A stretch of DNA of 52,479 bases from a virus (taxonomy: Duplodnaviria > Caudoviricetes), in IMG/VR virus record IMGVR_UViG_3300030685_000004, positions 1-52,479 of that record; one strand, given 5' to 3'. Below are positions 2,289 to 34,033 of this stretch, piece after piece. The notes under the pieces are model-generated. The model made no database searches, was not told the origin of the DNA, and was given only the letters and a program-made list of their open reading frames with translations. Position 1 is the first letter of the stretch, and every line of letters begins with the position of its first letter. The position numbers were made by a program, and so were the translations under genes.

Positions 2289-2300
2289 GGGGGATTATTA

Positions 2301-3575: not shown

Positions 3576-3599
3576 ACATTTTAGGACTGAGGTGAGGAT

Positions 3600-8280: not shown

Positions 8281-8308
8281 TCGCGAGAATAACATAGGTT
8301 ATAATGAA
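8281..8308 (+). promoter_or_regulatory. Phage promoter repeat P1
   Basis: TCGCGA-gaata-ACAT-aggt-TATAAT-GAA. Confidence 0.85.
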
Positions 8309-8336
8309 GGCAAAAACCTTGAAAGGGGAGAAGGAA

Positions 8337-8627
8337 ATGAAAAGATTTCGTAAAGATAAAAGGAATCCAATAACAAAGGAGGTAGATGAGATAATTAGTA
8401 TTATGGCTACTACAGATAGAGGTTCCGATAAATATAAGCAATTAGCTGGTAATTTAGAAACATTAATGAAGGTAAGGTCTAGTTATAAAGACCCATCCAG
8501 AGTTGATGTAAACACATTAGCAATAGTTGTAGGTAATTTATTGGGAATCGCTATTATAGTGGGATATGAGCAAAGTCATATCATCACCACCAAAGCATTA
8601 GGATTTGTTTTAAAGGGACGTGTGTAA
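8337..8627 (+). CDS. Early cassette membrane protein
   Basis: RBS TTGAAAGGGGAGA; C-terminal TM segment; terminator overlaps the stop codon. Confidence 0.75.
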   Translation: MKRFRKDKRNPITKEVDEIISIMATTDRGSDKYKQLAGNLETLMKVRSSYKDPSRVDVNTLAIVVGNLLGIAIIVGYEQSHIITTKALGFVLKGRV

Positions 8628-8647
8628 TACATGTCCTTCTCTTTTTT
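8613..8647 (+). terminator. Intrinsic terminator
   Basis: AAGGGACGTGT-gtaat-ACATGTCCTT followed by a T-tract. Confidence 0.75.
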
Positions 8648-8652
8648 GCCTA

Positions 8653-8680
8653 TCGCACAAATTACACAGCCTATAATGAA
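8653..8680 (+). promoter_or_regulatory. Phage promoter repeat P2
   Basis: TCGCAC-aaatt-ACAC-agcc-TATAAT-GAA. Confidence 0.85.
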
Positions 8681-8797
8681 GAGATGATTATATGCGAACA
8701 GTATAATCTGAGAAAGGTGTTGTCCTTGAAGGTTTAGCTGATGGCTATCGAAATACGGAACAACTTAATGGTTAATGGTTGAGCCGCCTATCTCTTC
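8678..8797 (+). ncRNA. Structured ~120-nt small RNA of unknown family (sRNA-A)
   Basis: Has its own promoter and no RBS/ORF. 5' GAAGAGATG pairs with 3' TATCTCTTC, internal hairpins are present, and a T10 tract follows. Confidence 0.65.
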
Positions 8798-8810
8798 TTT
8801 TTTTTTTGCC

Positions 8811-8838
8811 TCGCACAATTTACACACCCTATAATGAA
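8811..8838 (+). promoter_or_regulatory. Phage promoter repeat P3
   Basis: TCGCAC-aattt-ACAC-accc-TATAAT-GAA. Confidence 0.85.
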
Positions 8839-8867
8839 AGATATTTCAGAAAGGGGATTAGAATATT

Positions 8868-8948
8868 ATGATAACAATGTTAGTAATAGCGTTAATAATA
8901 AAAATTCTTAAAAGAAAATCAGGACAAAAGGTAGTAGAGGCAATTTAA
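8868..8948 (+). CDS. 26-aa hydrophobic/basic microprotein (MITMLVIALIIKILKRKSGQKVVEAI)
   Basis: Own promoter, RBS GAAAGGGG, and a terminator hairpin (GTAGTAGAGG...CTTCTACTAT-T tract) over the stop codon. Confidence 0.65.
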   Translation: MITMLVIALIIKILKRKSGQKVVEAI

Positions 8949-8969
8949 ACTTCTACTATTTTTTTTGCC

Positions 8970-8997
8970 TCGCATAGATTACATATAGTATAATGAA
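8970..8997 (+). promoter_or_regulatory. Phage promoter repeat P4
   Basis: TCGCAT-agatt-ACAT-atag-TATAAT-GAA. Confidence 0.85.
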
Positions 8998-9024
8998 AGA
9001 AATTGTGAAAGGGGATTAAAAATC

Positions 9025-9246
9025 ATGGAGAAAAAAGCAATGGTAGTTTTAGGATTATTTAGTTTAGGAGGTTATGTATTAGGACTCTCTATAGATAGAC
9101 GCATTATGAAAAAGAGACATGCAAAAATCGAAAGGGAATTCTTCGCATTGATTACTAAAGACAAAGAATTAATAGAATTATCAAAACGAATCAATATGAA
9201 AAATAAAATTCTTCACAGTAAAATTAGAGAGTTTGGGTGCTTATAA
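9025..9246 (+). CDS. Early cassette protein, N-terminal TM helix
   Basis: Promoter, GAAAGGGG RBS, terminator. Confidence 0.7.
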   Translation: MEKKAMVVLGLFSLGGYVLGLSIDRRIMKKRHAKIEREFFALITKDKELIELSKRINMKNKILHSKIREFGCL

Positions 9247-9268
9247 AGCATCCTTTCTTTTTTGCCTA

Positions 9269-9296
9269 TCGCGAAAATTACATATATTACAATGAA
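9269..9296 (+). promoter_or_regulatory. Phage promoter repeat P5
   Basis: TCGCGA-aaatt-ACAT-atat-TACAAT-GAA. Confidence 0.8.
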
Positions 9297-9325
9297 AGAA
9301 TAATAAATTTAAGGAGTGATAAATT

Positions 9326-9550
9326 ATGTTTAAAAAAGAAATGGTTGTTGAGACGACATTAGAACATGGTAATAATCTAGAGGTTCAGGCTTTAGCAAGT
9401 ATATATACAGTAAGTACTGTTCATATAAATGCTAGGAATGACGATCAGGTTATTGTCAGATTCATAATAAAGAAATCAAAAATCAAAGATTTTAAAGCTA
9501 ATTTAAGATTGTTAAATGGATTAGGAATTAAAGGAAGAATAGTAGAGTAA
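9326..9550 (+). CDS. Early cassette hypothetical protein
   Basis: Promoter, RBS AAGGAG, terminator over the stop codon. Confidence 0.7.
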   Translation: MFKKEMVVETTLEHGNNLEVQALASIYTVSTVHINARNDDQVIVRFIIKKSKIKDFKANLRLLNGLGIKGRIVE

Positions 9551-17350: not shown

Positions 17351-17500
17351 TAATGACAAAGATAGGTAAGTATAAATTGAGAAAATATAGTGTACTAGAT
17401 ATAGGTTGGTTCTGGTTGCGTTGCACAATAGCAGCGGTAGCGGTTTGTGTAGTTATATATGGACTTGGTGATATGATAGAGATGGTTGCTCGTTTCTAAC

Positions 17501-17528
17501 TCGCGAAGATTACACAGTATATAATGAA
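17501..17528 (+). promoter_or_regulatory. Phage promoter repeat P14
   Basis: TCGCGA-agatt-ACAC-agta-TATAAT-GAA. Confidence 0.85.
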
Positions 17529-17554
17529 GATAAAACTTGAAAGGTGGAGTTAAA

Positions 17555-17809
17555 ATGATGAACAGAGAACAGGTTAAATTTGTAGGAGAATTAGTAATTT
17601 CAGTATGTGTTAATACAGTAATAGGTAATGTTATAAAGGGGACTACCCCTGAGGATATAGGTAAGCTCGAAGGAGCTGCTGTTAGACTTGGGAAGGCAGT
17701 ACTCAGTATAGCAATAGCTAATATAGTAGTTGACAATATTGAGAAGAGATTCGATGCAAGGATGGCAAAAATCGATGAACAGAATAAAAACGAAACAGTT
17801 AAAGCGTAA
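17555..17809 (+). CDS. Early cassette hydrophobic-hairpin protein
   Basis: Own promoter and terminator. Confidence 0.7.
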   Translation: MMNREQVKFVGELVISVCVNTVIGNVIKGTTPEDIGKLEGAAVRLGKAVLSIAIANIVVDNIEKRFDARMAKIDEQNKNETVKA

Positions 17810-17813
17810 TCAG

Positions 17814-17857
17814 AAAGGAGTAGGTACTATTAACATAGTACTTATTCTTTTCGTTTT
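17814..17857 (+). terminator. Intrinsic terminator
   Basis: AAAGGAGTAGGTACTAT-taac-ATAGTACTTATTCTTTT followed by a T-tract. Confidence 0.75.
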
Positions 17858-17874
17858 TGAAAGGGGCGATAAAA

Positions 17875-18123
17875 GTGAGTGGAGATACTGGCAAATCAAT
17901 AATGGCCTTTGTAGAAATACAAGAAAATGGTATAATAAGAAAAGACAATATTGTAATAGGTCACTTAACCGACTATGCAAAGGATAATTTCGAAAAAACA
18001 TATATAGAGATGGTTAATAAAAGTATAGACCTTGCTATGAAACAAATAAAAGATCAAACTAAGACTATATATATGGGAGCCACTTCTACAATTAATACTG
18101 GTTTTAAAAGGGGAGATAAATAA
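17875..18123 (+). CDS. Hypothetical protein (GTG start)
   Basis: RBS TTGAAAGGGG. Confidence 0.55.
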   Translation: MSGDTGKSIMAFVEIQENGIIRKDNIVIGHLTDYAKDNFEKTYIEMVNKSIDLAMKQIKDQTKTIYMGATSTINTGFKRGDK

Positions 18124-18266
18124 TGGTATTATTAACAGTTTTTATAGTTGGATGGATAGGTGGGTCTTTAATGGTGTGCTTAGGTCAAGGTAGACCTAGA
18201 AAATATAAAGATGGAATAATGTTCTTTGATGACGAACTTAATCTGGATGAAAGGGAGAGATAAATA

Positions 18267-18455
18267 GTGGACTATATAACCTGCACGATTCCAAATCAAG
18301 AATATACTGGGATATTTATAATTGATAGTCATTTGGTTAAACACAAGTTAATTGAAGCAGGCTTTTATTTAAATAGACCCATGACTCATATATATGACAC
18401 GGTGAATGATACAGTTGTATTCAAACAAGAAAAGGGAGAGATAAATAATGGATAA
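18267..18455 (+). CDS. Hypothetical protein
   Basis: RBS GAAAGGGAGAG; GTG start. Confidence 0.55.
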   Translation: MDYITCTIPNQEYTGIFIIDSHLVKHKLIEAGFYLNRPMTHIYDTVNDTVVFKQEKGEINNG

Positions 18456-19080
18456 AAGAGATTACGTAAATATTAATGATTTTCCAAGCAATTCAAAAGA
18501 GGCACAGAAAGATGAAACTATAGAAAGAAAGGTTGTTAGTAAAGTAACTACTGGTAAAGTTCTAAAAAGGAAAAAATCATTTGGTAAGAAGGTTGTAGAG
18601 ACTTTTGTTGGAGAAGAGATATTTGATGTTAAGACTTATATTCTTCAGGATGTATTAGTGCCAGCATTTAAGAACACGGTAGTAGAGATGTTCAGAGATA
18701 TTCCAGAGTTACTCTTATTTGGAGAAAGACGAAATTCTAGGTCATCATCGTCAAGAGGTATGGGTCGTATTGCTTATGACAGTATGTCTAGTAGAAGAGA
18801 TGTCAATACAAGAGAAATATCTAATAGAGACAGAGCTACTCATAACTTTGATGAGATAGTTCTTACCACTAGAAACGATGCGGTTGAGGTTCTTGGTAGC
18901 CTAATGGATTTGATACAGGATTATGGACAGGCAACAGTGGCAGACTTGTATGACTTTGTAGGAGTGACCGGAGAATACACAGATAGGAAATATGGTTGGT
19001 TAGATTTATCAAGAGCAGGCTTAAGACCAGTCAGAGGTGGATTCATGTTGGATTTACCTAGACCTATATTAGTAGATTAG
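18448..19080 (+). CDS. Conserved phage protein with ATVADLY...YGW domain
   Basis: C-terminal 'TR.DA.EVL..L...I..YG.ATVADLYD..G...D.KYGW..L...LDLPRP'. Confidence 0.75.
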   Translation: MDKRDYVNINDFPSNSKEAQKDETIERKVVSKVTTGKVLKRKKSFGKKVVETFVGEEIFDVKTYILQDVLVPAFKNTVVEMFRDIPELLLFGERRNSRSSSSRGMGRIAYDSMSSRRDVNTREISNRDRATHNFDEIVLTTRNDAVEVLGSLMDLIQDYGQATVADLYDFVGVTGEYTDRKYGWLDLSRAGLRPVRGGFMLDLPRPILVD

Positions 19081-19088
19081 GTGTTATT

Positions 19089-19268
19089 ATGACTATAGTT
19101 GAAATGCGTAGATATGTCGCTAACAAATATTATAGTGACACTTGGAAAAACAAAGTTAAAATGATGAATGACAACCAGGTACTAGCAATATATACCAAAA
19201 TGAAACTAGATGATGATAATGCATTCTATATTATAAAGGATCGAGACCGTTATTTGTATGGCCAATAA
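19089..19268 (+). CDS. 59-aa protein, paralog of 20662-20796
   Basis: 'MR..V...Y...W..KVK.M.D.QVLAIY'. Confidence 0.65.
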   Translation: MTIVEMRRYVANKYYSDTWKNKVKMMNDNQVLAIYTKMKLDDDNAFYIIKDRDRYLYGQ

Positions 19269-19285
19269 TGAAAGGGGATATTATA

Positions 19286-19978
19286 ATGGAAATAAAGTTT
19301 GAAACAAGAGAAGAAGCAGGAAGGGTATTAGCAAAACTTGATGCAAAAATACTTTTGGATGGAATTGCTACTTTAAAAGATTATCATGATTTTAGGTCAA
19401 TGTTATCTATTCTTGGAGATAGTCAGTGTGGTTGGAGAGGACTTCAAACTGCCATAATTCAAAGAGACTACATTGAAAATGCTTGGTTATTAATATTACC
19501 AGACCCAATACACTTAGGGGGAGATTATAAGATAAACCCACCAAATAGAACATTTAATAGTAAAGAATGTGCAGATTTGGTACTTCTAGCTATGACCGAG
19601 AATATAGAATATCAAGGAAAGACTAGTCTTGTTGATTACTACAAAATTCTTGGTTGTGAGGATTATCAGGAGTCAGATGATGAATGGGGTTGGACTGATC
19701 TAAGAGAGGCAAGAATAAGAGAAAATACAATTGCTGGCTTTACTTTATTGTTACCCCCAATAGTACGCTTACATGGTCCACAAAACGTAAAAGAAGAGGA
19801 ATATGAGTATCCTAAACTTGAAGGCCTAGCTGTAGAATTTAATAACACCGGATTAGAACCTATATTGTTTGTATGTAAACCCACTAATAAGGGTCTCGTA
19901 TATGTGTCCAGATGCAAAGGAGTAGAAGCAATTAAGATATACAACCTACTGCTTGGTAAGAAAGAAGGAGCGAAATAA
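19286..19978 (+). CDS. Protein with two ATVADLY/GW-family domains
   Basis: Two repeats of F.(T/S)(R/K)E.A..VL...GW..L..A.I...L.LP. Confidence 0.7.
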   Translation: MEIKFETREEAGRVLAKLDAKILLDGIATLKDYHDFRSMLSILGDSQCGWRGLQTAIIQRDYIENAWLLILPDPIHLGGDYKINPPNRTFNSKECADLVLLAMTENIEYQGKTSLVDYYKILGCEDYQESDDEWGWTDLREARIRENTIAGFTLLLPPIVRLHGPQNVKEEEYEYPKLEGLAVEFNNTGLEPILFVCKPTNKGLVYVSRCKGVEAIKIYNLLLGKKEGAK

Positions 19979-19979
19979 T

Positions 19980-20153
19980 ATGGTGACTGATTTATATATT
20001 GTAGGTTTTGACTTATCTGAACAAGATGACATGACTGCATCTATAGGAATACTAGGAACTGGAGTTATGAATGTTGAAATAAAGAAAACTATTCATGGAG
20101 AAAAAGCAATCGAACTATATGAAAAATTGAAAGGGGAGATAAATAATGAATAA
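19980..20153 (+). CDS. Small hypothetical protein
   Basis: RBS AAGGAG; 'G..AI.(I/L)Y..L' C-terminus like that of the upstream gene. Confidence 0.55.
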   Translation: MVTDLYIVGFDLSEQDDMTASIGILGTGVMNVEIKKTIHGEKAIELYEKLKGEINNE

Positions 20154-20541
20154 AATATTATTAGTTGTTGGCGGATTTGTTGGGGGTTATTGTGTTCATA
20201 GAAAGATAATGACAATTGCACTTACCGAGATGTTAGAGAAGGATTATCCTAAACCAAGATATACAAACTATCGTGATATAATAATAGGTACGAGAGAAGA
20301 TGCAAGAGAAGTATTAGGTTTACTTCAGAATTTCATAGATAATTATGGTGTAGTTACCGTTGCTGATTTATTAGATTCAGTAGGAGAAACAAGTTCTATT
20401 ATAGATGTTAAATATGGTTGGGTAACATCATTCGGTGCATATGTGGCAAAAGATAAAAATGGTTGGACACTTAAATTACCTAGACCAAGGTTGTTAGATA
20501 ATGACACAAGTTATGTTCCATACTCGAAAAGGAGTAAATAA
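20146..20541 (+). CDS. ATVADLY/GW-family protein with N-terminal TM
   Basis: 'TREDAREVL...NYGVVTVADLLD..G...KYGW...LKLPRP'. Confidence 0.75.
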   Translation: MNKILLVVGGFVGGYCVHRKIMTIALTEMLEKDYPKPRYTNYRDIIIGTREDAREVLGLLQNFIDNYGVVTVADLLDSVGETSSIIDVKYGWVTSFGAYVAKDKNGWTLKLPRPRLLDNDTSYVPYSKRSK

Positions 20542-20661
20542 TATGAATAGATATAAGCAGTTTGAAGAGAAATGCAAAGTGTGTCCTTGGAATACTATGT
20601 GTAGTGTGGAGTTGACTCAAGTGTTAGGATGTATGTCTGATAACGAAAAGGAGAATGACAA

Positions 20662-20796
20662 ATGTCAACCGATCAAATGAGAAATGCTGTAGCCACTGTA
20701 TATGCTGGTAGAAAATGGGCACTTAAAGTCAAGGTTATGAGTGATCATCAGGTACTTGCCATATATAAAAGATTTGTAAATTCCAAATTATTATAA
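20662..20796 (+). CDS. 44-aa protein, paralog of 19089-19268
   Basis: MSTDQMRNAVATVYAGRKWALKVKVMSDHQVLAIYKRF. Confidence 0.65.
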   Translation: MSTDQMRNAVATVYAGRKWALKVKVMSDHQVLAIYKRFVNSKLL

Positions 20797-20816
20797 AAAG
20801 AAAAGGGGAGAGGCCC

Positions 20817-21281
20817 ATGAAAATTTTAACATTTACAGATAGAGAATCTGCTGAAGCAATTTTAAAGAGTCTTGATGTCTGTATACAATGTAAAGGAGTT
20901 GCCACAGTTGCAGACTTATATTACTATATAAATACTCCAACTTATTGTATGATGTATCCGGAATCACCTGACGATACTAAAATGGGATGGACTACTATAG
21001 ATACAGCTAAGTTATCTAGAGATTTATACCACAATACTTATCGGTTAATGGTACCAGATCCTATAGCGTTAGATAAGCAATCTGGTCCAGTCGAACCAGT
21101 AGCATCAACAATTATTCTCAGTGAGGATTATATGATTGAATATGACCTTAAGGACGATGGTCAAGCCGCATTAACTGTAAAGGTTAAAAATGGACGTAAT
21201 GAAAGAGTTATAAATGTACTTTTCGACGATATTGCAAAACTAGTTTATAAAATATTAATAATTGAAAGGGGTAATAAATAA
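20817..21281 (+). CDS. ATVADLY/GW-family protein
   Basis: 'FTDRESAEAIL...GVATVADLY...MGW...L.VPDP'. Confidence 0.7.
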   Translation: MKILTFTDRESAEAILKSLDVCIQCKGVATVADLYYYINTPTYCMMYPESPDDTKMGWTTIDTAKLSRDLYHNTYRLMVPDPIALDKQSGPVEPVASTIILSEDYMIEYDLKDDGQAALTVKVKNGRNERVINVLFDDIAKLVYKILIIERGNK

Positions 21282-22186
21282 TGAATAAATTAACTACAAT
21301 CAAAAATGTAGTAACATCCAAAGCAGGAAGAGGTCTGTTACAGATTAGAAAGGTTAGTCCAGAAATACTGTTAGTTGCTGGAGTTGCTGGAGTAATAACC
21401 AGTACAGTGCTAGCATGCAGAGCCACACTTAAAGTAGAAGAGATTGTTGGGGATGCGTTAATAGATATTAACAAAATAGAACAGGTTGCTGCAGAAAACA
21501 ACGAAACAAAGTATTCAAAGAAGGATGCTGCAAAAGATTTGTTCATAGTAAGGGTTCAGACAGGAGCGAAGATTGCTAAGTTATATGGTCCATCAATAGC
21601 AGTAGGTGTTGTATCACTAGCATGCTTACTTGGTTCACACAATATTCTACAGAAGAGAAATGTTGCTCTTATGTCAGCATACAAAGCTCTTGAGACTGGT
21701 TTCAACGAATATAGGAAAAGAGTTGTTGATGAGTTAGGTGTTGATAAGGATACTGAGTATAGATATGGAATATCTAAAGTTAAAGTAACTACTATTGACG
21801 AGAATGGTGTTGAAACTTCAAAAATGGTTAACAACATTAACATGACTGATAGTATATATGCAAGAGAATTCTCAGAAAAGACAGCAAAAGAATGGTCACC
21901 AAATCCTGAATACAATCTTATGACTCTTAAATGTCGTCAGAACTATGCCAACGATTTACTGAATGCTAGAGGACATCTATTCTTAAATGAAGTATACGAC
22001 ATGCTTGGTATCAAAAGGTCTGATGCTGGTGCTGTTGTAGGATGGGTTAAGGATAATGTTGATGGAGATGGTTTTGTAGATTTCGGGATTTACAAAGATT
22101 TAAATTGTCAGGAATATGTTAATGAATATGGAACTAGCTGGTTGTTAGACTTCAATGTTGATGGTGTCATATTTGATTTGATTTAA
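21281..22186 (+). CDS. DUF6353-like protein
   Basis: 'SPEILLVAGVAGV..STVLACRATLK', 'GHLFLNEVYDMLG...VVGW', 'LLDFNVDG'. Confidence 0.75.
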   Translation: MNKLTTIKNVVTSKAGRGLLQIRKVSPEILLVAGVAGVITSTVLACRATLKVEEIVGDALIDINKIEQVAAENNETKYSKKDAAKDLFIVRVQTGAKIAKLYGPSIAVGVVSLACLLGSHNILQKRNVALMSAYKALETGFNEYRKRVVDELGVDKDTEYRYGISKVKVTTIDENGVETSKMVNNINMTDSIYAREFSEKTAKEWSPNPEYNLMTLKCRQNYANDLLNARGHLFLNEVYDMLGIKRSDAGAVVGWVKDNVDGDGFVDFGIYKDLNCQEYVNEYGTSWLLDFNVDGVIFDLI

Positions 22187-22313
22187 TGAAAGGGGTAGAA
22201 AAAAATGAAAAAATACGGATGTATGGCAATGTTGTTTGACCTATTTATGATATTTATAACTGGTGGTCTATGGCTCATATGGATTCTAGTTAGGTTCTTG
22301 AGGACTCACTAAA

Positions 22314-22556
22314 ATGAGCACGAAGTATATTCCAATGGAGTATGATAATCTTGGAGGGTATGTACGACAATTGTTCTATCTACTAGAAGACAATGTGTTT
22401 GTTAATGAATTTGGTATAGTTGTATTTAATATCTTTGATTACATTACTCCAAACGAGTTAATGTTGTTTAAAGCAACAAAAGAATATACACAGATACCAT
22501 CAAGAAACGGGTTTATGATAGAACTATTATGCCAAGAGTTAAATTTTGATTATTGA
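22314..22556 (+). CDS. Hypothetical protein
   Basis: RBS GAGGA; open frame. Confidence 0.55.
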   Translation: MSTKYIPMEYDNLGGYVRQLFYLLEDNVFVNEFGIVVFNIFDYITPNELMLFKATKEYTQIPSRNGFMIELLCQELNFDY

Positions 22557-22570
22557 AAGGGGAGAATGAT

Positions 22571-23233
22571 ATGTATAAAAATATAGGATTAGTATTATTA
22601 GGGGCCTTAATCGGGTCCCTTATTACTTACAAATATCTTACAGTGAACTATGAAGAAGTTGAAGATGACAAGAAATCAGCTGAAAAATTAGCAGCGGAAC
22701 TTGCAGAATATAGAAAACCGAAAGAGCATCTATCAATTGGAGGTTATAATATACCAACACCTGGCGAAGTTATAGAGTTAATTGATAAGGCATCTTTACA
22801 CCCAGGTATGGACTCTGAAGAAAGAACCAGGACCAGAGAAGATATAGAAGAAGAACGAATCGAATATGCCAAAGAGGTACTTGGATATACTGGTGATGAA
22901 GATGAGGAAATTGAATTCATACCTAATCCAAGGCAGACAGAAATACAGGATAAACCCTTTGTAATTACTGTAGACTTATTTGCCGAGGACTGTGTCAACT
23001 ATGATAAACTCACAGTCTATTATTATGAGGTTGATAATGTTTTAGTAGATGAGGGTGATGATGCACAGATGGATATTGAAACATCTATAGGTTATGAGGC
23101 TTTAGATGAATTCGGATATGGCAATCCTAACCCTGACTTAGTGTATGTACGTAATGATCATTTAGAGATTGATTATGAGGTTATACGACTTGGTGATTCT
23201 TATGAAGAGAGCGTGATGGAGTATGAAAAGTAG
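22571..23233 (+). CDS. Acidic protein with N-terminal membrane anchor
   Basis: N-terminal TM; C-terminal 'P.VI....F...L.YY..D.VL.D...VYVRN..L.IDYEV'. Confidence 0.75.
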   Translation: MYKNIGLVLLGALIGSLITYKYLTVNYEEVEDDKKSAEKLAAELAEYRKPKEHLSIGGYNIPTPGEVIELIDKASLHPGMDSEERTRTREDIEEERIEYAKEVLGYTGDEDEEIEFIPNPRQTEIQDKPFVITVDLFAEDCVNYDKLTVYYYEVDNVLVDEGDDAQMDIETSIGYEALDEFGYGNPNPDLVYVRNDHLEIDYEVIRLGDSYEESVMEYEK

Positions 23234-23756
23234 ACTAGCGGATAACTATTATGAATGGTTATGTAACCTTATAGATGTGGAACAGGAGGGGGCATCCTAT
23301 TGGAAATTAACCAATGATATGCAATCTAAACCATTCTATTGGACAGTACCCAATGATGATAATCGAGCATATGATGGTAAATTACTTAGGACAGATTTTT
23401 GCGATGCGATGGATATCGAATACAATTATGATGATTTTGACCAGGAGACGTCTATGCTCGAATTGATTATTGGAGTAGCATATCGATGTGAAAGTATTAC
23501 CATACAACATGGTCGAGGCTTCAAAATGATAGACTGGTTTTGGAGATTATTGGACAATTGCGGACTGGGAAAGTGTACGGACGATAACTACGATGAAGAG
23601 TACGTTTGTTGCACTTTGGAGGCAATTATTAAAAGAACCTATAAAAGAGATGGGTATGGAGGTCTTTTCCCCCTTAAAAAGGCTAACCAAGACCAGAGAA
23701 AAATAGAGATTTGGTATCAAATGCATGCATATTTGAATGAAAACTACTATAATTGA
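23223..23756 (+). CDS. Conserved phage protein
   Basis: 'YYEWL', 'ND.NRA.DG..LR', 'GGLFPL...DQR..EIWYQM..YL'. Confidence 0.75.
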   Translation: MKSRLADNYYEWLCNLIDVEQEGASYWKLTNDMQSKPFYWTVPNDDNRAYDGKLLRTDFCDAMDIEYNYDDFDQETSMLELIIGVAYRCESITIQHGRGFKMIDWFWRLLDNCGLGKCTDDNYDEEYVCCTLEAIIKRTYKRDGYGGLFPLKKANQDQRKIEIWYQMHAYLNENYYN

Positions 23757-23761
23757 GTAAA

Positions 23762-23941
23762 AAATGTTGCAGTTGTTGCAGTTGTTGCAGTTTCAAAATA
23801 AAAGTGCAACACCCTCTAGACCTTGATATGACTGGGTTAAGAGACTTTTGTTGCATTGTTGCACTTTTTTTCTATAACTATATAGGAGAAAATAAGTAGT
23901 ATATATAAGAGTTTTACAAAATAAAAGTGCAACAGCAACAT
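23762..23941. repeat. Putative replication origin: 8 TGTTGC(A) iterons in both orientations around AT-rich spacers
   Basis: TGTTGCA at 23765, 23774, 23783, 23849 and 23857; reverse copies at 23805, 23928 and 23935; non-coding gap upstream of the replicase. Confidence 0.7.
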
Positions 23942-23964
23942 TTTACAAAGAAAGGAGGACATTC

Positions 23965-26900
23965 TTGGATTTTTACAAAATAAAATCAAGACCAGTTAAG
24001 CAGGGAGTCATCGAACTATCTCCTGATTTCAAAGTATGTAAATGCAAAGATTTGATGATTCGTGGTAAATCATTTTATGCAATATGGGACGAAGAAAAAG
24101 GATTATGGTCTACTGATGAATATGAAGTACAAAGATTAGTAGATGAAGAATTGATTAAAGCTAGAGATGATGAAACCAAAAATAGTGATTCAATTGTAAA
24201 AGTAAAATTGATGATGGAGTTTTCAAATAAGTCATGGGTAGAGTATAGAAACTTTATGAAAAACATATCTGACAATTCCCATCAGTTGGACACAGAATTA
24301 ACATTCCAGAATACCGAGATAAAAAAGAAAGACTATGTAAGTAAGAAGCTACCATATCCATTAGAGGAAGGAAGGTGTGATGCTTTTGATGAACTCATCG
24401 GAACCTTATATGACCCAGAAGAAAGAGCAAAACTCGAATGGGCAATTGGAGCAGTTATCGCAGGAGACGCAAAGAATATACAAAAATTTATTGTGCTCTA
24501 TGGAGAGGCGGGAGCAGGTAAATCCACAATCCTCAACATTATCCAAAAATTATTTGAAGGCTACTATACAACCTTTGAAGCAAAGGCCCTAACTACAAAT
24601 AATAATTCTTTTGCCATGGAAGTATTTAGAACAAATCCACTAGTGGCAATACAACATGATGGTGACCTCTCAAAGATTGAAGATAATACAAAACTCAATT
24701 CAATCATATCTCACGAAGAGATGACTATGAATGAGAAGTATAAGCCATCATATACATCTAGAGTTAATTGTTTTCTGTTTATGGCTACTAATAAACCAGT
24801 AAAGATAACAGATGCAAAATCAGGTATCATAAGAAGACTTATAGATGTTAAACCATCTGGTAAAAGACTTCCATCCAAGAAGTATATGGCTCTTATGTCT
24901 AAGATAGACTTTGAACTTGGAGCAATAGCACAACATTGTTTTAATGTATATAAGAATATGGGTAAGCACTATTATAATTCTTATAAACCATTAGAGATGA
25001 TGTTTCAAACTGATATGTTCTTTAATTTTGTAGAAGATAATTTCTATGAATTTAAAAAAGATGATGGTATAACCTTAAGTAGAGCATTTACCTTATACAA
25101 GGAATATTGTGAGGATTCATTGATAGATTACAAACTATCAAAGACAAAGTTTAGAGAGGAACTTAGAAATTATTTTAAATATTTCTCAGGTGGAACTGCC
25201 ATTCGTGTAAATGGGGTTATAACTAGAAATTATTATTCTGGGTTCTTAGATACCAAGTTCAATTCTGAATCAAAAAAAGAAGAGGAAATACCAAACACCC
25301 TAGTGTTAGACTCAACCGAATCCATATTTGATAAAGAGTGTTCCGAGTGCCTAGCTCAGTATGCTAATGAATATGATACTCCAAACAAAAAATGGGCAGA
25401 TGTAAAAACTAAATTAAAAGATATAGATACATCACAGGTACATTATGTTAGATTACCAGAGAATCATATTGTAGTAGACTTTGATTTAAAGGATGACAAA
25501 GGGGAGAAGTCACTAGAATTAAATACAGAAGCAGCAAGTAAATGGCCACCTACATATGCCGAGTATAGTAAGAGTCAAGCAGGAGTGCATCTTCATTATA
25601 TTTATGAAGGCGATCCAAACCAACTTAGTAGACTATATTCAGAAGGCATAGAAATCAAAGTGTTTAATGGTAATAGTTCTTTGCGAAGAAAGTTGTCTAA
25701 GTGCAACCATATTCCCATTGCTACCATAAACTCTGGATTACCACTGAAAGGAGAAAAAATGATCAACTTTGAAAGTGTAAAAAGTGAGAAAGGATTAAGA
25801 GAATTAATCAAACGAAACATGGAAAAAGAAATTCATGCTGGAACAAAACCTAGTATGGACTTCATATACAAGATATTAGAAGATGCCTATAATTCAGGTT
25901 TGGGTTATGACATTACTGATATGCGACCTAGACTATTAGCATTCGCTAGTAACAGCAGTCACCAAGCAGATTACTGTATAAAACTACTTGGTCAGATGAA
26001 ACTCAAATCTGAGGACATAAGTTCACCTTTGAATGATTATGATCCCAAAGAAGAATTAATGTTTTTCGATGTTGAAGTATTCCCTAATCTATTTGTAGTT
26101 GTTTGGAAGACCAAAGGGAAACAGGCAGTAAAGATGATCAACCCAACACCATTAGAGATAGAATCACTTCTGAAATATAGGTTAGTGGGATTCAATTGTC
26201 GTAGGTATGATAACCATATTATGTATGCTCGTTATATTGGGTACACTAATGCAGAGTTATACACCTTAAGTCAGAGGATTATATCCAATAGTCCTAATTG
26301 TATGTTTGGAGAGGCTTACAATCTATCCTATACTGATGTATATGACTTTGCATCAGCTGGTAATAAGAAGAGTCTTAAGAAATTTGAAATAGAATTAGGT
26401 ATACATCATCAAGAACTTGGACTTCCATGGGATGAGCCAGTGCCAGAAGAGCTGTGGACTAAGGTAGCAGAATATTGTGTTAATGATGTAGAGGCTACTG
26501 AAGCAGTATTTGATCATCTTGTAGGTGACTGGACAGCAAGACAGATATTAGCAGAGTTGAGTGGATTGACAGTTAATGATACAACAAATGCTCACTCTAC
26601 AAGAATCATATTTGGTACCAATAGAAAGCCACAAGATGTATTTGTGTATACTGATCTTAGTGAACAGTTTCCAGGTTATAAATTTGATTTTGGAAAGAGT
26701 ACTTATAGAGGCGAAGAGGTTAGTGAAGGTGGACATGTATATTCAGAACCAGGAATGTATACTAAGGTAGCCCTACTAGATGTGGCATCAATGCATCCAT
26801 CAAGTATTGAGTTACTAGATATGTTTGGCCCATATACTAAAAAATTCTCCGAAATCAAGAAAGCAAGACTGGCAATTAAACATGACAACTATGAAGCTGC

Positions 26901-27894
26901 TAGTAAAATGTTGGATGGTAAGCTAGCTAAATTCTTGAACAATCCTAATTACAAATCTGATGATTTATCAAATGCTTTGAAGACAGTAATCAATTCAGTA
27001 TATGGATTAACCTCAGCTAAATTTGAGAATGCTTTCAGAGACCCAAGAAACATAGATAATATAGTAGCCAAAAGAGGAGCTCTCTTTATGGTAGACCTCA
27101 AATATGCAGTACAAGAAAAAGGATTTACTGTAGCACATATTAAGACAGACTCCATAAAGATACCAAATGCAACTGAGGAAATTATTCAGTTTGTTATGGA
27201 CTTTGGACTCAAATATGGGTATGACTTCGAACATGAAGCTACCTATGAAAAGATGTGTTTAGTTAATGATGCTGTATATATTGCTAAATATGACAGTAAG
27301 GGTTTAATAGGTAAAGGTGGGAAACATGCTGGTGAGTGGACAGCTACAGGAGCACAGTTTATTCAGCCATATGTATTTAAATCATTGTTTAGTAAAGAAC
27401 TATTAACTTTTGCGGATACCTGTGAAACAAAATCTGTAACTACAGCCTTATATTTAGATATGAATGAAGACCTACCACCAGAAGAACATAAATATCACTT
27501 TGTAGGAAAGGTTGGGTCGTTCTGTCCAATCAAACCAGGAAAGGGTGGTGGTATATTACTAAGAGAAAAAGAAGGAAATTATCATGCAGCAAGTGGTAGT
27601 AAAGGATTTAGATGGCTTGAAGCAGAGATGGTTCATATTCTTAATAAAGAAGCAGACATCGATCATGCATATTATAATAAGTTGGTTGATGATGCATTAA
27701 CTAATATATCCAACTTTGGTGATACTGAATGGTTTATATATAGTGAGTCACCTAAACCAAGAAATTTATGTTCAACCCCATGTGGAAAAAATAATGATAC
27801 TCTTTGTGAAAGTTGTAATAACTTATCAGAAGAAGAGGATATCTTATTATGTAAACTTGGTTCACATTTTAAACCAACACTATTACCATTTTGA
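23965..27894 (+). CDS. Fused SF3 helicase - primase(AEP-like) - 3'-5' exonuclease - family B DNA polymerase
   Basis: Walker A GEAGAGKS and ATNK; DFDLKD and SKSQAGVHLHY; exonuclease FFDVEVF/GFNCRRYD/YCVNDV; PolB LDVASMHPS, K...NSVYG, IKTDS; TTG start with AAGGAGG RBS. Confidence 0.9.
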   Translation: MDFYKIKSRPVKQGVIELSPDFKVCKCKDLMIRGKSFYAIWDEEKGLWSTDEYEVQRLVDEELIKARDDETKNSDSIVKVKLMMEFSNKSWVEYRNFMKNISDNSHQLDTELTFQNTEIKKKDYVSKKLPYPLEEGRCDAFDELIGTLYDPEERAKLEWAIGAVIAGDAKNIQKFIVLYGEAGAGKSTILNIIQKLFEGYYTTFEAKALTTNNNSFAMEVFRTNPLVAIQHDGDLSKIEDNTKLNSIISHEEMTMNEKYKPSYTSRVNCFLFMATNKPVKITDAKSGIIRRLIDVKPSGKRLPSKKYMALMSKIDFELGAIAQHCFNVYKNMGKHYYNSYKPLEMMFQTDMFFNFVEDNFYEFKKDDGITLSRAFTLYKEYCEDSLIDYKLSKTKFREELRNYFKYFSGGTAIRVNGVITRNYYSGFLDTKFNSESKKEEEIPNTLVLDSTESIFDKECSECLAQYANEYDTPNKKWADVKTKLKDIDTSQVHYVRLPENHIVVDFDLKDDKGEKSLELNTEAASKWPPTYAEYSKSQAGVHLHYIYEGDPNQLSRLYSEGIEIKVFNGNSSLRRKLSKCNHIPIATINSGLPLKGEKMINFESVKSEKGLRELIKRNMEKEIHAGTKPSMDFIYKILEDAYNSGLGYDITDMRPRLLAFASNSSHQADYCIKLLGQMKLKSEDISSPLNDYDPKEELMFFDVEVFPNLFVVVWKTKGKQAVKMINPTPLEIESLLKYRLVGFNCRRYDNHIMYARYIGYTNAELYTLSQRIISNSPNCMFGEAYNLSYTDVYDFASAGNKKSLKKFEIELGIHHQELGLPWDEPVPEELWTKVAEYCVNDVEATEAVFDHLVGDWTARQILAELSGLTVNDTTNAHSTRIIFGTNRKPQDVFVYTDLSEQFPGYKFDFGKSTYRGEEVSEGGHVYSEPGMYTKVALLDVASMHPSSIELLDMFGPYTKKFSEIKKARLAIKHDNYEAASKMLDGKLAKFLNNPNYKSDDLSNALKTVINSVYGLTSAKFENAFRDPRNIDNIVAKRGALFMVDLKYAVQEKGFTVAHIKTDSIKIPNATEEIIQFVMDFGLKYGYDFEHEATYEKMCLVNDAVYIAKYDSKGLIGKGGKHAGEWTATGAQFIQPYVFKSLFSKELLTFADTCETKSVTTALYLDMNEDLPPEEHKYHFVGKVGSFCPIKPGKGGGILLREKEGNYHAASGSKGFRWLEAEMVHILNKEADIDHAYYNKLVDDALTNISNFGDTEWFIYSESPKPRNLCSTPCGKNNDTLCESCNNLSEEEDILLCKLGSHFKPTLLPF

Positions 27895-27907
27895 AAGGAG
27901 AACAATA

Positions 27908-28072
27908 ATGAAATGTCCAGATGAGAGGATATATATTGGAAAGTGTAACAAATGTCAAAAAGAATATAGCATGCCATATATTTACTGTTGTTTAACAGAA
28001 TGTGGAGAACATGAATTTTGTCAAAATTGTAAAGTAAGAAAGGGGATTAATAATAATGATGATCAAGAATAA
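27908..28072 (+). CDS. Small Cys-rich protein
   Basis: RBS TTGAAAGGAG; CxxC...CC...C...CxxC. Confidence 0.55.
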   Translation: MKCPDERIYIGKCNKCQKEYSMPYIYCCLTECGEHEFCQNCKVRKGINNNDDQE

Positions 28073-28502
28073 TTTAGTAATAGAAAACGCGAGGATAGGA
28101 TTCAGAAACTTTAGTGGAAAGGCTGCCAAGTTTAATCCAGTAGGAAGAAGAAATTTCTGTGTGTTCCTAGATATGGTTGATGGTCATAAATTGGAAAACG
28201 ATGGATGGAATGTCCGTTGGTTACAGCCTAGAGAAGAAGGAGAGGATATGGTACCATATTTACAGGTTGCAGTATCATATGATAACATAGCGCCTAAGAT
28301 AGTCTTAGTAACTAAGAAGAGGAAGACTGTACTTGATGATATTTCAGTAAGTGAATTAGATACTGCTGAGATAGAAAATGTCGATTTGATCATTAGACCT
28401 TATAATTGGGATGTTCAGGGTAAAGAAGGAGTTAAAGCATATGTTAAGAGTATGTATGTTACAATAGTAGAAGACGAATTCGCCGAAAAGTATTATGATT
28501 AG
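28056..28502 (+). CDS. Putative ssDNA-binding protein
   Basis: 'FRNFSG...N..G.RNF.V', 'VKAYVKSMYVTI'; replication module position; acidic C-terminus. Confidence 0.65.
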   Translation: MMIKNNLVIENARIGFRNFSGKAAKFNPVGRRNFCVFLDMVDGHKLENDGWNVRWLQPREEGEDMVPYLQVAVSYDNIAPKIVLVTKKRKTVLDDISVSELDTAEIENVDLIIRPYNWDVQGKEGVKAYVKSMYVTIVEDEFAEKYYD

Positions 28503-29709
28503 TCTTCGAGACTATCAGATAGAAGCAATTGATAAACTAAAGTCAGGCTCCATCCTTTGTGGTGGGGTCGGCTCTGGTAAATCGAGAACTGCCATAGCTT
28601 ATTATTTTCTGAAAGAATGTAAAGGTACTATGAATGTAAATGGTGTTGGGGAATTCTCTCCCATGACAAAACCAAAAGACCTTTATATCATTACAACAGC
28701 TAAGAAAAGAGATACTTTAGAATGGGAAGGGGAATGTACTCCTTTCCTTATATCAACAAAGAAAGATTGTGGTATGAGTACAGTCATCGTTGACTCATGG
28801 AATAATATATCAAAGTATATCAAAGTTAGGAATGCATTCTTTATATTTGATGAACAGCGATTAGTTGGTTCAGGCACCTGGGTCAAATCATTCTTAAAGA
28901 TAGTAAAGAACAATAATTGGATTCTTCTTAGTGCTACACCAGGTGATACTTGGACCGACTATATTCCTGTCTTCATAGCTAATAAGTTCTATAAGAACCG
29001 TACTGAGTTTCTTAGGCGACACGCCGTATATAATCGATTTACAAAATATCCAAAGATAGAGAGCTTTATGGAGCAAGGTCACCTTAGCCGATTAAGAGAA
29101 CAGATAACCATAAGAATGGAATATACCAAACAAACAATTGCAATTGATAAAACTATAAATGTTCCATTTAAAAAAGAACCTCTTGACACAGTTCTCCTTA
29201 AACGATGGAACCCATATACTGAGAAACCAATCAAGTCCATCAGTGAAGTATGCTATCTAATGAGAAAGGTGGTTAATAGTGATCCGTCTAGGTTGGAAGA
29301 AATAACTAAGATAATCAAGGAGCATCCGAAAGTAATCATATTCTATAATTTTGATTATGAGTTGTCTATGCTTAAAGAATTAGGTGACACATTAAAAATA
29401 TCAACCAGTGAATGGAATGGACATGCCCATCAAGAGATTCCAAAAACTAAATCATGGATATATTTAGTTCAGTATACAGCGGGTGCAGAGGGTTGGAATT
29501 GTATAGAGACAGACACAATCATATTCTACTCACAAAACTATTCATACAAGACCATGGTTCAGGCAGCGGGACGAATCGACCGTCTTAATACACCATTCAC
29601 ATACTTGTATTACTATCATATTAAGTCAAACTCAATAATAGACCTAGCAATAGCAAGGGCATTAAAAAATAAAAAGAATTTCAACATACATCGTTTTATA
29701 GATTCTTAA
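28495..29709 (+). CDS. SF2 (SNF2-like) DNA helicase
   Basis: LRDYQ, GGVGSGKS, FDEQ, SATPG, EGWN and QAAGRIDR motifs. Confidence 0.9.
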   Translation: MISLRDYQIEAIDKLKSGSILCGGVGSGKSRTAIAYYFLKECKGTMNVNGVGEFSPMTKPKDLYIITTAKKRDTLEWEGECTPFLISTKKDCGMSTVIVDSWNNISKYIKVRNAFFIFDEQRLVGSGTWVKSFLKIVKNNNWILLSATPGDTWTDYIPVFIANKFYKNRTEFLRRHAVYNRFTKYPKIESFMEQGHLSRLREQITIRMEYTKQTIAIDKTINVPFKKEPLDTVLLKRWNPYTEKPIKSISEVCYLMRKVVNSDPSRLEEITKIIKEHPKVIIFYNFDYELSMLKELGDTLKISTSEWNGHAHQEIPKTKSWIYLVQYTAGAEGWNCIETDTIIFYSQNYSYKTMVQAAGRIDRLNTPFTYLYYYHIKSNSIIDLAIARALKNKKNFNIHRFIDS

Positions 29710-29711
29710 CC

Positions 29712-29739
29712 TCGCGAAAATAACATATACTATAATAGA
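29712..29739 (+). promoter_or_regulatory. Phage promoter repeat P15 (upstream of the nuclease-RNA polymerase operon)
   Basis: TCGCGA-aaata-ACAT-atac-TATAAT-AGA. Confidence 0.85.
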
Positions 29740-29790
29740 GGGATAGAATAAGCCCATCTTATTATTTTGTTTTTGCAAAGGAGATAATCC

Positions 29791-33780: not shown

Positions 33781-33860
33781 ACCAATAGTGGGGGGTCCCT
33801 CGCAAATCCTACCCCCCCTCCATATCGCGTTCGTCCTAAAAAAAGCTCCGGTGGGACATT

Positions 33861-33988: not shown

Positions 33989-34033
33989 CACATTAAAACT
34001 TACATAAAAGTAATAGAAAGGAGTGAACAACTG

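Follow-up and report, generated by a model that had tools for sequence, protein, structure and literature searches.

Fifteen copies of a three-box motif in a phage genome as candidate promoters for the phage's own RNA polymerase

In the phage genome considered here, a motif of 31 bases is repeated fifteen times, in one orientation and with rigid internal spacing, ahead of early, replication and polymerase-operon genes, and we consider it likely that these copies are promoters for the phage's own single-chain RNA polymerase rather than for the sigmaA holoenzyme of the host. An earlier note, made from the letters of this DNA alone, had arrived at the same reading, and the evidence from sequence now supports it in three ways, namely by the association of the motif with the polymerase gene in related genomes, by the offsets at which Shine-Dalgarno sequences follow the motif, and by the purine that stands directly 3' of its hexamer in 81 of 81 copies across 10 genomes.

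The motif array and its setting

The window, that is, the whole stretch of DNA that was analysed (52,479 nucleotides; IMG/VR record IMGVR_UViG_3300030685_000004), is a complete 52-kb phage genome whose source is peat metagenomes (24 DNA runs). The pattern TCGYR-N6-ACAY-N4-TAYAAT matches it exactly 15 times in a pattern scan, in every case on the + strand (15/15), and 100 shuffles of the sequence gave no match at all; these are the fifteen sites of fixed spacing that the earlier note had described. With RRA added 3' of the hexamer and two mismatches tolerated, the same 15 sites were recovered against 0.18 expected, and since this looser scan adds no site, the set of 15 is a discrete one. Counted with the first base 3' of the hexamer as +1, the motif extends from -25 to +6, over which the 15 copies carry a relative entropy of 40.5 bits; the invariant positions are T-25, C-24, G-23, A-14, C-13, A-12, T-6, A-5, A-3, A-2, T-1 and A+3. 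The hexamer is TATAAT in 14 copies and TACAAT in one, and the triplet that follows it, correctly given beforehand as GAA or AGA, is GAA in 13 of the 15 copies and AGA in the other 2. The late genes of the window are without any copy. The copies, as candidate promoters, and the elements that surround them are the following.

8281..8311, + strand: candidate promoter copy 1, which opens the array behind the lysis genes; the nearest downstream ATG that has a ribosome-binding site lies at about 8337
8614..8638, + strand: intrinsic-terminator-like hairpin and T-run, immediately 5' of copy 2
8653..8683, + strand: candidate promoter copy 2, which would serve a structured RNA of about 123 nt (8678-8800)
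8811..8841, + strand: candidate promoter copy 3, with TTGCCT 18 nt 5' of the hexamer; a small ORF runs from about 8868
8970..9000, + strand: candidate promoter copy 4, 5' of the ORF 9025-9246
9235-9253, 10023-10042 and 11103-11119: similar terminator-like sites, 5' of copies 5, 7 and 10
9269..9299, + strand: candidate promoter copy 5, the sole TACAAT copy, 5' of the ORF 9326-9550
9769..9799, + strand: candidate promoter copy 6, 5' of an ORF ending at 10034 (ATG at about 9822)
10051..10081, + strand: candidate promoter copy 7, which would serve a tRNA-like RNA (10076-10156) and then a DUF6378 ORF ending at 10456
10445..10475, + strand: candidate promoter copy 8, 5' of the ORF 10498-10800, with no -35-like hexamer
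10830..10860, + strand: candidate promoter copy 9, 5' of an ORF ending at 11111 (ATG at about 10887)
11134..11164, + strand: candidate promoter copy 10, AGA type, which would serve a tRNA (11164-11237)
11249..11279, + strand: candidate promoter copy 11, 5' of an ORF ending at 11510 (ATG at about 11307)
11526..11556, + strand: candidate promoter copy 12, a TCGT variant with TTGACT at 18 nt, which would serve a tRNA-like RNA (11552-11624)
11654-12430: DUF6353 ORF, 3' of the tRNA-like RNA of copy 12
12705..12735, + strand: candidate promoter copy 13, first in a gene block of about 4.8 kb (12754 to about 17350)
17501..17531, + strand: candidate promoter copy 14, first in a block of about 12 kb whose products include a DNA primase/polymerase (23965-27894), a helicase and an ssDNA-binding/annealing protein
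29712..29742, + strand: candidate promoter copy 15, AGA type, first in the nuclease-exonuclease-polymerase operon
29737..29775, + strand: hairpin and T-run, directly 3' of copy 15
29791-30102: VRR-Nuc nuclease, in the operon of copy 15
30053-30622: Cas4-like exonuclease, in the same operon
30597..33521, + strand: candidate single-chain RNA polymerase (PHROG 4291), with a DFDGD metal loop, in the same operon
33780..34034: GC-rich stretch that separates the polymerase module from the late genes and contains runs of G6 and C7 but no motif copy

Terminator-like sites are frequent in this part of the genome (15 between 8000 and 18000, against 3.3 expected). The hairpin and T-run behind copy 15, which has an equivalent in 7/7 genomes examined, would act as a terminator or attenuator in the leader or else form a small RNA, and the GC-rich stretch is probably the cos/packaging region, because the genome ends of relatives fall at this position. 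As the earlier note had observed, one copy, at 29712, precedes the polymerase operon itself, a layout that fits the positive feedback proposed there.

Sequences downstream of the hexamer

TATAAT is the universal -10 consensus of sigmaA, which starts transcription some 6-8 nt 3' of that hexamer. In the relatives of the window, Shine-Dalgarno sequences follow the hexamer at offsets of 1 (3 copies), 3 (2), 4 (3), 6 (2) and 7 (6), and in the eight copies where they lie at offsets 1-4 they would be lost if transcription began 6-8 nt downstream, so that such a start does not fit. The structured RNAs of the window lie just as close. In minimum-free-energy folds their closing stems begin at nt 1 after the hexamer in three cassettes (8678, 10076 and 11551) and at nt 2 in one (11159), which bears out the spacing of 1-2 nt claimed at the outset, and each of the four stems is then followed by a U-run. 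In the RNA at 8678-8800 the 5' end pairs with the 3' end just ahead of that run; behind copy 10, Rfam places a tRNA (11164-11237), extended to an 11-bp stem from nt 2; and the RNAs at 11552-11624 and 10076-10156 are tRNA-like, the former by ARAGORN and the latter by its T-arm and fold. An Rfam scan of 8000-18000 at E<=1 returned tRNA alone, leaving the RNA at 8678-8800 without a family. Thus, of the earlier claim of four ncRNA cassettes, the four structured RNAs stand, although three of them are one tRNA and two tRNA-like forms. When the DNA of the early region was compared with database phages, a single match of 142 nt appeared, tRNA-like and to phage P092.

Because ribosome-binding sites stand at 1-4 nt and RNA stems at 1-2 nt, transcription would start at the purine directly after TATAAT, a geometry that would lie outside the reach of host sigmaA. 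The initial transcribed sequence differs by lineage, being GAAAGA, GAGACCCC or AGAAAGAAGG, and in the window it is purine-rich, either GAAAGA or AGAAGA. As to the elements on which sigmaA would rely, a -35-like hexamer (at least 4/6) occurs in 5 of the 15 copies, always at 18 nt, as TTGCCT, TTGACT or TTCACT, and in another two TTGCCT lies 20 nt away, in agreement with the remark in the note that only some copies carry a TTG -35 at 18-20 nt. The TGn of an extended -10 is found in none of the 15 copies, ten of which lack both TGn and a -35. Nor is the region enriched in sigma70-like matches, which number 51 vs 46.6 in shuffles.

The polymerase and its relatives

The same arrangement, box-N6-ACA-N5-TATA(A/G)T-purine, recurs, always on the gene strand, in nine relatives known from metagenomes (38-55% GC) and in phages that infect Arthrobacter, Gordonia or Lactococcus. 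The architecture is shared by Arthrobacter phage Circum, Gordonia phage Conley, Lactococcus phages 1706 and P092 and the genomes G001-G010, and Streptomyces phage Bilo has a looser form of it; phage 1706 uses TATAGT as the hexamer of 11/12 copies. The TCGCG and ACA boxes are conserved across hosts of different phyla, and the -35 is not conserved across these phages. In nine polymerase-positive records, 52/52 copies lie on the strand of the polymerase gene, and the reversed-pattern control gave 0. The earlier note had proposed to look for co-occurrence of motif and polymerase gene in related genomes, and this was found: the gene is present in 9/10 long motif-bearing IMG/VR contigs (5/5 with several copies of the motif, 4/5 with one), as well as in Circum, Bilo, Conley, P092 and 1706. 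This co-occurrence suggests that the polymerase is what recognizes the motif. Polymerase identity across the aligned phages is 39-55%, and a recent duplication of cassettes fails as an explanation, because genomes so far apart share the motif. Polymerase and DNA polymerase occur together in all of about 250 database phages, with no polymerase-less relative among them. It may be recorded that P092 is both the sole phage without the YCRCR box and the sole one in which the second HTH helix departs from ES(S/T)(I/V)R; this parallel between box and HTH concerns one lineage only and carries no weight as evidence.

The gene at 30597-33521 is, from its sequence, a candidate single-chain RNA polymerase of the two-barrel type. 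The segment SGADFDGD is invariant in 47/47 aligned homologs and in 4/4 named phages, and around the catalytic part are arranged two HTH-like modules at the N-terminus, a further one inserted at about aa 355-385, and a C-terminal HTH that resembles sigma70 region 4. The TTG start at 30597 retains the conserved N-terminus, the database gene call beginning 28 codons later. Matches to PF05183 (RdRP) stay under the 23.8-bit cut-off, one scoring 12.5 bits (E=0.06) and the other 13.7 bits (E=4e-4), and among 14 control genomes such a sub-threshold signal was seen in B. subtilis only. When the family profile was aligned by hhalign with YonO of SPbeta, the probability was 21.5%, with the alignment outside the catalytic loop. 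A PDB profile search returned HTH proteins only (best E 9e-4); a tblastn search (E<=10) with the catalytic part as query gave nothing significant, its leads being a polymerase beta subunit (E=6) and a virion protein (E=2), both from jumbo phages; and Pfam gave no match to the T7-type polymerase family. In the ESM Atlas there is a PF05183-bearing cluster at 0.88, to be taken as a lead only. The family is large and counts no fewer than 7,998 protein clusters at E<=1e-10. Koert et al. (10.1101/842583) report that HHpred matched RdRP with a probability of 95.68% and that there are HTH modules at both ends. The phage of the window is a member of the known Actinobacteria/Firmicutes supercluster that encodes a YonO-like polymerase with HTH modules.

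In GenBank EU081845 the homologous orf75 of phage 1706 bears the label 'structural protein', and because of this annotation, by analogy, the polymerase of the window probably enters the cell along with the DNA, which would ease the bootstrap problem of a polymerase that depends on its own promoter. In the window itself, eight DUF7211-like tags are found on six ORFs of the head module, and the tape measure matches tape-measure families only. A capsid-targeting tag on the N-terminus of the polymerase was considered and rejected, an HMM built from the head-protein tags giving no match there at E<=100; the likeness of the two in L-x-H-x-G is visual only.

The promoter reading, its rivals and known systems

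Arrays of strong host promoters are common in the early regions of many phages, and the fifteen copies could be such an array, of ordinary strong sigmaA promoters that start 6-8 nt downstream and in which TCGCG and ACA are spacer kept by cassette duplication. The perfect -10 consensus in 14/15 copies and the usable -35-like hexamer at 18 nt in five of them are what would be expected in that case, and the host enzyme might read some of the copies even if the phage enzyme reads them too. Transcripts that run through from a promoter farther upstream could also, in principle, supply a closely placed ribosome-binding site, and the Gordonia phage announcements, in the parts available, take the motif as a sigma70 -10 (PMC9671010, PMC10868162). 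However, ten copies have neither a -35 nor TGn; across phages of different phyla it is the non-sigma boxes that are conserved and not the -35; phage 1706 has TATAGT instead of the consensus in nearly all of its copies; Shine-Dalgarno sequences at offsets 1-4 would be lost, and RNA stems begin at nt 1-2; and duplication is unable to account for conservation between genomes at the polymerase identities given above, so that we hold ordinary sigmaA promoters to be unlikely. The Shine-Dalgarno offsets, the stems and the +1 purines, in pointing to a start right after the hexamer, also argue against mixed or assisted promoters, where host core or holoenzyme would synthesize and a phage protein would read the boxes in the manner of T4 MotA/AsiA, whether the HTH-rich 'polymerase' were itself an activator or sigma substitute, or both enzymes used the same sites at different times. 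Such assistance would find some agreement in the boxes, which reckoned from a sigmaA start fall at about -31 to -16, the position of the MotA box in T4, in the likeness of the C-terminal HTH to sigma70 region 4, and in the -10 consensus and the five -35-like hexamers. Yet among the 57 other ORFs scanned, Pfam at E<=0.01 found no MotA/AsiA-like families and no other sigma or HTH proteins, and the DFDGD loop is invariant across 47 diverse homologs, which an activator would not need; we regard this explanation, too, as improbable.

That the repeats are operator sites, similar to 'stoperators', or a recombination or mobility repeat overlapping generic promoters, seems to us very improbable indeed. 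They are multi-copy, intergenic and of a single orientation, like the stoperators of Cluster A and CA actinophages as far as the accessible part of that source describes them (PMC13313380), and 9/15 copies contain the palindromic TCGCGA. Beyond TCGCGA, however, the sites lack dyad symmetry, and the scanned ORFs of the window include no repressor-like protein. The boxes also keep a constant distance from the hexamer and from a conserved +1 purine, precede nearly every early transcription unit and stand directly behind terminators, all of which are properties of promoters.

If, as we favor, the copies are promoters for the phage polymerase, each would consist of a TCGCR box (-25 to -21), an A/T-rich tract, an ACA box (-14 to -12), the hexamer (-6 to -1) and a +1 purine. 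The two boxes would lie on one face of the helix, because they are about 10 bp apart, and the HTH modules of the polymerase would probably dock on them, with TATAAT serving as the melting segment that opens and transcription starting at G or A. The fifteen promoters would then serve the genes for early functions, for replication and of the polymerase operon, and four of the fifteen would produce small structured RNAs (a tRNA, two tRNA-like RNAs and one of unassigned kind). The injected enzyme would carry out early transcription independently of host sigma, and copy 15, ahead of its own operon, would renew the polymerase for later transcription and packaging. More tentatively, and at somewhat less than even chances, we propose that all this forms a self-contained module, in which a virion-borne two-barrel polymerase with fused sigma-like HTH and a three-box promoter starting after TATAAT would act without host sigma, the same pair being employed in Actinobacteria and Firmicutes. 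The pair would be usable in both because no host sigma factor is needed, and this independence may have let the phage lineage cross phyla.

The phage supercluster for which this polymerase family is a marker extends over two bacterial phyla, and what the enzyme reads is unstated in the literature searched. The promoter model is precise and mutable, with both boxes, the melting hexamer and the +1 purine at defined positions, and it is addressable in cultured relatives on Lactococcus, Arthrobacter and Gordonia. If true, it would correct the published sigma70 reading of the motif, provide the first defined promoter for the YonO-like class of polymerases, suggest how a minimal HTH-bearing polymerase locates its promoters without sigma, and offer a compact, host-independent (orthogonal) polymerase-promoter pair for Gram-positive synthetic biology.

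Among known systems, the T7-type promoters of single-subunit phage polymerases resemble the motif of the window as it is read here. In both, rigid copies (about 15-17 of them, 23-31 bp long) share one orientation, a binding part lies upstream of an AT-rich TATA melting part that ends at -1, a +1 purine opens a conserved initial transcript, and one copy stands upstream of polymerase-dependent genes; the motif of the window differs in that the enzyme has a DFDGD loop of the two-barrel type and in that the late genes have no copy. In N4-like and crAss-like phages giant virion polymerases are injected and perform early transcription, that of N4 having a T7-like domain and reading hairpin promoters; the likeness is of an enzyme that arrives with the DNA for early transcription, suggested here via the annotation in phage 1706 only. 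The middle promoters of T4, which join a MotA box to a sigma70 -10, need MotA and AsiA and start 7 nt downstream, are similar in that a conserved non-sigma box takes the place of the -35, 5' of a TATAAT-like hexamer, but neither that need nor that start fits the promoters of the window.

Closer to the enzyme itself, YonO of the Bacillus prophage SPbeta transcribes one late operon, from a promoter left undetermined in the available part of the report (PMC5467207). The enzyme of the window would, like YonO, be a single-chain polymerase of the two-barrel kind from a siphovirus, and both give sub-threshold PF05183 matches; it differs in its HTH modules and in its link to many early promoters. In Thermus phage P23-45 there are a virion polymerase, fused to the tape measure, and a non-virion one, both two-barrel, and an AT-rich motif is found at 14/23 early starts (PMC10770324); as far as the accessible part of that work goes, it is alike in its phage-specific conserved motifs 5' of mapped early starts and its delivery of a polymerase in the virion, and unlike in having two enzymes and two motifs, with HTH modules unmentioned. 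In the literature searched, the motif is described only in the Gordonia cluster DJ phages Vardy and Conley, and no paper ties it to a phage polymerase. There it appears as an intergenic motif of 43-50 bp, reported in 5 copies, whose TATAAT is called a sigma70 -10; in the parts of these papers available, a phage polymerase is unmentioned, and a start right after the hexamer and conservation across phyla are unproposed (PMC9671010, PMC10868162). Conley carries the same element as the window: its early region has YCGCA-N6-ACA-N5-TATAAT-GAGACCCC in 10-11 copies, and its gene 89 encodes the homologous polymerase.

The motif set and the gene map

The window covers an entire phage genome. No other contig belongs to its assembly, it carries a 127-bp repeat at its ends and is classed in IMG/VR under direct terminal repeats, and near-identical DNA was found in 24 peat-metagenome runs, all of DNA. 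Its GC content is about 35%, and every credible gene lies on the + strand.

Genes and regions of the window (PHROG and Pfam scans)
1-6065, +, tail genes
6941-7798, +, endolysin
ending at 8102, +, holin-like ORF
8.3-23.7 kb, +, dozens of small ORFs
23965-27894, +, DNA primase/polymerase
after the primase/polymerase, +, ssDNA-binding/annealing protein, then helicase ending at 29709
between helicase and polymerase, +, VRR-Nuc nuclease and Cas4-like exonuclease
30597-33521, +, 974-residue protein (PHROG 4291, labeled 'RNA-dependent RNA polymerase')
33780-34034, GC-rich gap
after the gap to the contig end and round it, +, head and tail genes

The early genes include a NADAR-domain protein (14072-14488; Pfam E=5e-26), which may have an ADP-ribose-processing or counter-defence role, and the early/middle region also holds two paralogous DUF6353 proteins (PHROG 2152; 11654-12430 and 21281-22186) and four ORFs in a row at 18448-21281, all of PHROG 4079, both groups with unassigned function.

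The three-box signal TCGYR-N6-ACAY-N4-TAYAAT is present in 15 copies, all on the + strand, as the earlier note had counted and placed them, and a pattern scan returned exactly these 15 against none in 100 shuffles. With a trailing RRA added and two mismatches tolerated, exactly 15 were again found against 0.18 expected, so that the set is discrete, and this pattern gave no copy in the late region. If the first base past the TATAAT-like hexamer is numbered +1, the invariant positions are T-25, C-24, G-23, A-14, C-13, A-12, T-6, A-5, A-3, A-2, T-1 and A+3, +1 carries G in 13 of the copies and A in the other two, and the information content of -25 to +6 is 40.5 bits. Of the copies, 13 lie within 8281-12735, one is at 17501 and one at 29712. 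The 8000-18000 region has an excess of terminator-like hairpins with T-runs (15 versus 3.3 expected), several of them directly 5′ of a copy, and the T-rich flank of the copies is in large part due to these T-runs just upstream.

Where transcription would start

As a host sigmaA promoter the motif fits poorly on the points raised earlier: the TCGCG and ACA boxes fall within what would be the sigmaA spacer, and a -35-like hexamer accompanies only part of the set (5/15 copies, in each case at 18 nt, a long spacing). A TG extended -10 is found in 0/15, and sigma70-like matches in the motif region are no commoner than in shuffles. Nor do the motif positions of the window offer an alternative -10 hexamer 6-8 nt 5′ of the proposed +1, because -12 to -7 read A-Y-A-N-N-N.

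With the position after the hexamer left free in the pattern, that base is a purine in all 81 copies from 10 genomes (G 67, A 14), opposite-strand copies being 0. A scan of 11 genomes for the motif and a ribosome-binding site gave 90 matches, at least one of them spurious (P092 12030), with a ribosome-binding site and start codon in 60; the former begins at offset 1 from the hexamer in three cases, 3 in two, 4 in three, 6 in two and 7 in six, and in the metagenomic relative G010 the hexamer is followed by GAGGAGGTG and by ATG at offset 15-16. A sigmaA start, lying 6-8 nt past the hexamer, would mean the loss of the early-offset ribosome-binding sites. This argument is stronger than that from tRNAs directly after a copy, in the relatives and the window itself, which on a reading of the flanks begin about 6-8 nt past the hexamer (except one of phage 1706, at about 24 nt); taken alone the latter is weak, since such starts fit either model.

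In the window, the closing stems of four RNA cassettes do open at nucleotide 1 or 2 past the hexamer and finish at a U-run when folded. The earlier note had called all four ncRNAs; the number stands, and one of them is a tRNA (Rfam) and two are tRNA-like. The RNA at 11552-11624 is tRNA-like by ARAGORN ('tRNA-???'), with an odd 6- or 8-nt anticodon loop, and that at 10076-10156 by its T-arm and fold, without a clear anticodon arm; both begin at the predicted +1, their acceptor stems being made from the conserved initial transcript. The structured RNA at 8678-8800 (about 123 nt, MFE -32.9 kcal/mol) is closed by pairing of its first 9 nt with the final 9 nt ahead of the U-run; it matches no Rfam family and contains no ORF of at least 50 aa. 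Straight after the copy that heads the recombination/nuclease/polymerase module there is a hairpin (starting at nt 1-5) with a T-run in 7/7 genomes examined, the window included; this could represent a conserved leader terminator or attenuator, or a small RNA, timing the expression of the polymerase operon.

Hairpin and T-run after the module-heading copy
Window, 29737-29775
Circum, 54431
1706, 46482
P092, 44453
Metagenomic relatives G005, G007 and G010

The candidate reader of the motif

In Arthrobacter phage Circum the top repeated 14-mers by simple word counts are TCGCGTAAATTACA and ACAAGGGCTATAAT, and about 10 copies of TCGCGTAAATT-ACA-N5-TATAAT, then G or A, are present, one of them 0.9 kb 5′ of the polymerase gene. 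Gordonia phage Conley has YCGCA-N6-ACA-N5-TATAAT-GAGACCCC in 10-11 copies, and Lactococcus phage 1706 has 12 copies, with TATAGT and AGAAAGAAGG in 11; P092 retains TTTT-ACAYACCC-TATAAT-GAAAGG and has lost the upstream box, and Streptomyces phage Bilo shows TCGCA and TAAT-GAGACCCC in three copies at variable spacing, with both ACA and the full hexamer kept in only one. Across IMG/VR the exact pattern occurs in at least 139 stretches, many bunched on a single contig. The co-occurrence check proposed earlier found the polymerase gene in 5/5 long multi-copy and 4/5 long single-copy contigs; by a looser pattern the nine polymerase-positive records have 6, 11, 5, 3, 4, 1, 9, 2 and 11 copies, all 52 on the strand of the polymerase gene, the polymerase-negative record has one, and the reversed pattern gave 0 in every one of these records. 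The GC content of these genomes is 38-55%. The motif is constant while the hosts change phylum, which points to a phage-encoded reader, and among the 57 other window ORFs scanned Pfam detected no further sigma or HTH (helix-turn-helix) protein.

The candidate is the 974-residue protein, with full-length relatives in about 250 database phage records (tblastn identity about 36-50%), from phages of Arthrobacter, Gordonia, Streptomyces, Lactococcus, Curtobacterium, Microbacterium, Rhodococcus and Faecalibacterium and from gut contigs; the large DNA polymerase is found in the same phage groups. Koert et al. (10.1101/842583) described this supercluster and listed the protein as a possible YonO-like polymerase, noting a DxDGD loop and HTH modules at its N- and C-termini; the word 'promoter' does not occur in their text. 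SGADFDGD is invariant in the alignments; the Pfam RdRP match around it is below threshold, and of 14 control genomes scanned likewise, B. subtilis, which hosts YonO, was alone in giving a match. A direct hhalign comparison with SPbeta YonO gave a probability of 21.5%, with the aligned part outside the catalytic region. The two-barrel YonO-like fold is a putative assignment, based on the literature and the catalytic motif. The C-terminal HTH, similar to sigma70 region 4, scores above the Pfam cut-offs, and two N-terminal modules and one inserted module are HTH-like below threshold. The insert (window 31650-31750, aa ~355-385; Sigma70_r4_2, E=7e-4, below cut-off) is missing from the homologs of P092, Circum and Bilo.

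In summary, several independent kinds of sequence evidence support the proposal of the earlier note that the motif would constitute the promoters of the phage's own polymerase, with +1 directly after TATAAT.

First molecules, late genes and known systems

One copy does precede the polymerase's own operon, and should all 15 be read by the phage enzyme, this one included, the enzyme's first molecules would need another supply. The label 'structural protein' of the phage 1706 homolog reportedly came from virion mass spectrometry; it stands in the original GenBank record (orf75, later renamed by RefSeq) and was taken over by similarity in that of Rhodococcus phage ReqiPoco6. Alternatively, weak initial reading by the host could take place at the five copies that have a -35-like hexamer. 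Eight DUF7211-like N-terminal tags (L-x-H-[HY]-G-x-x-G-M-x-W-G), which may be capsid-cargo or protease-site tags, lie on six head-module ORFs, two of which carry two; an HMM of the eight gave no match to the polymerase N-terminus.

Tag-bearing ORFs, located among the terminase, portal and capsid genes
34335-35678
36629-37489
37516-37998
39756-40235
40256-40660
40694-41194

The polymerase gene lies at the genome end, beside the head genes and what is probably the cos region, likewise in all relatives; the GC-rich gap has runs of G6 and C7 where relatives have cos ends. The 26-kb late operon (34034-52479/1-8102) is free of motif copies and is not divided from the polymerase operon by any terminator-like site; transcription of the late genes might come from read-through over the joined cos site or from the host enzyme.

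In Gordonia phages Vardy and Conley the same motif has been published as an intergenic element (50 or 43 bases) that includes a -10 sigma70 promoter sequence (PMC9671010, PMC10868162), with no mention of a phage polymerase in the available text of either. The word 'promoter' is absent from the Arthrobacter phage survey (PMC5513430), as are 'promoter' and 'motif' from the eleven-genome DJ paper, and the YonO paper (PMC5467207) leaves the YonO promoter open. Among the freely accessible main texts searched, no paper assigning the motif to the phage polymerase was found. The result is a promoter model, defined and testable, for a polymerase class that is large and unstudied. The polymerase family has already been described (Koert et al., 10.1101/842583); the closest worked example is P23-45, with phage two-barrel polymerases and mapped motifs (PMC10770324).
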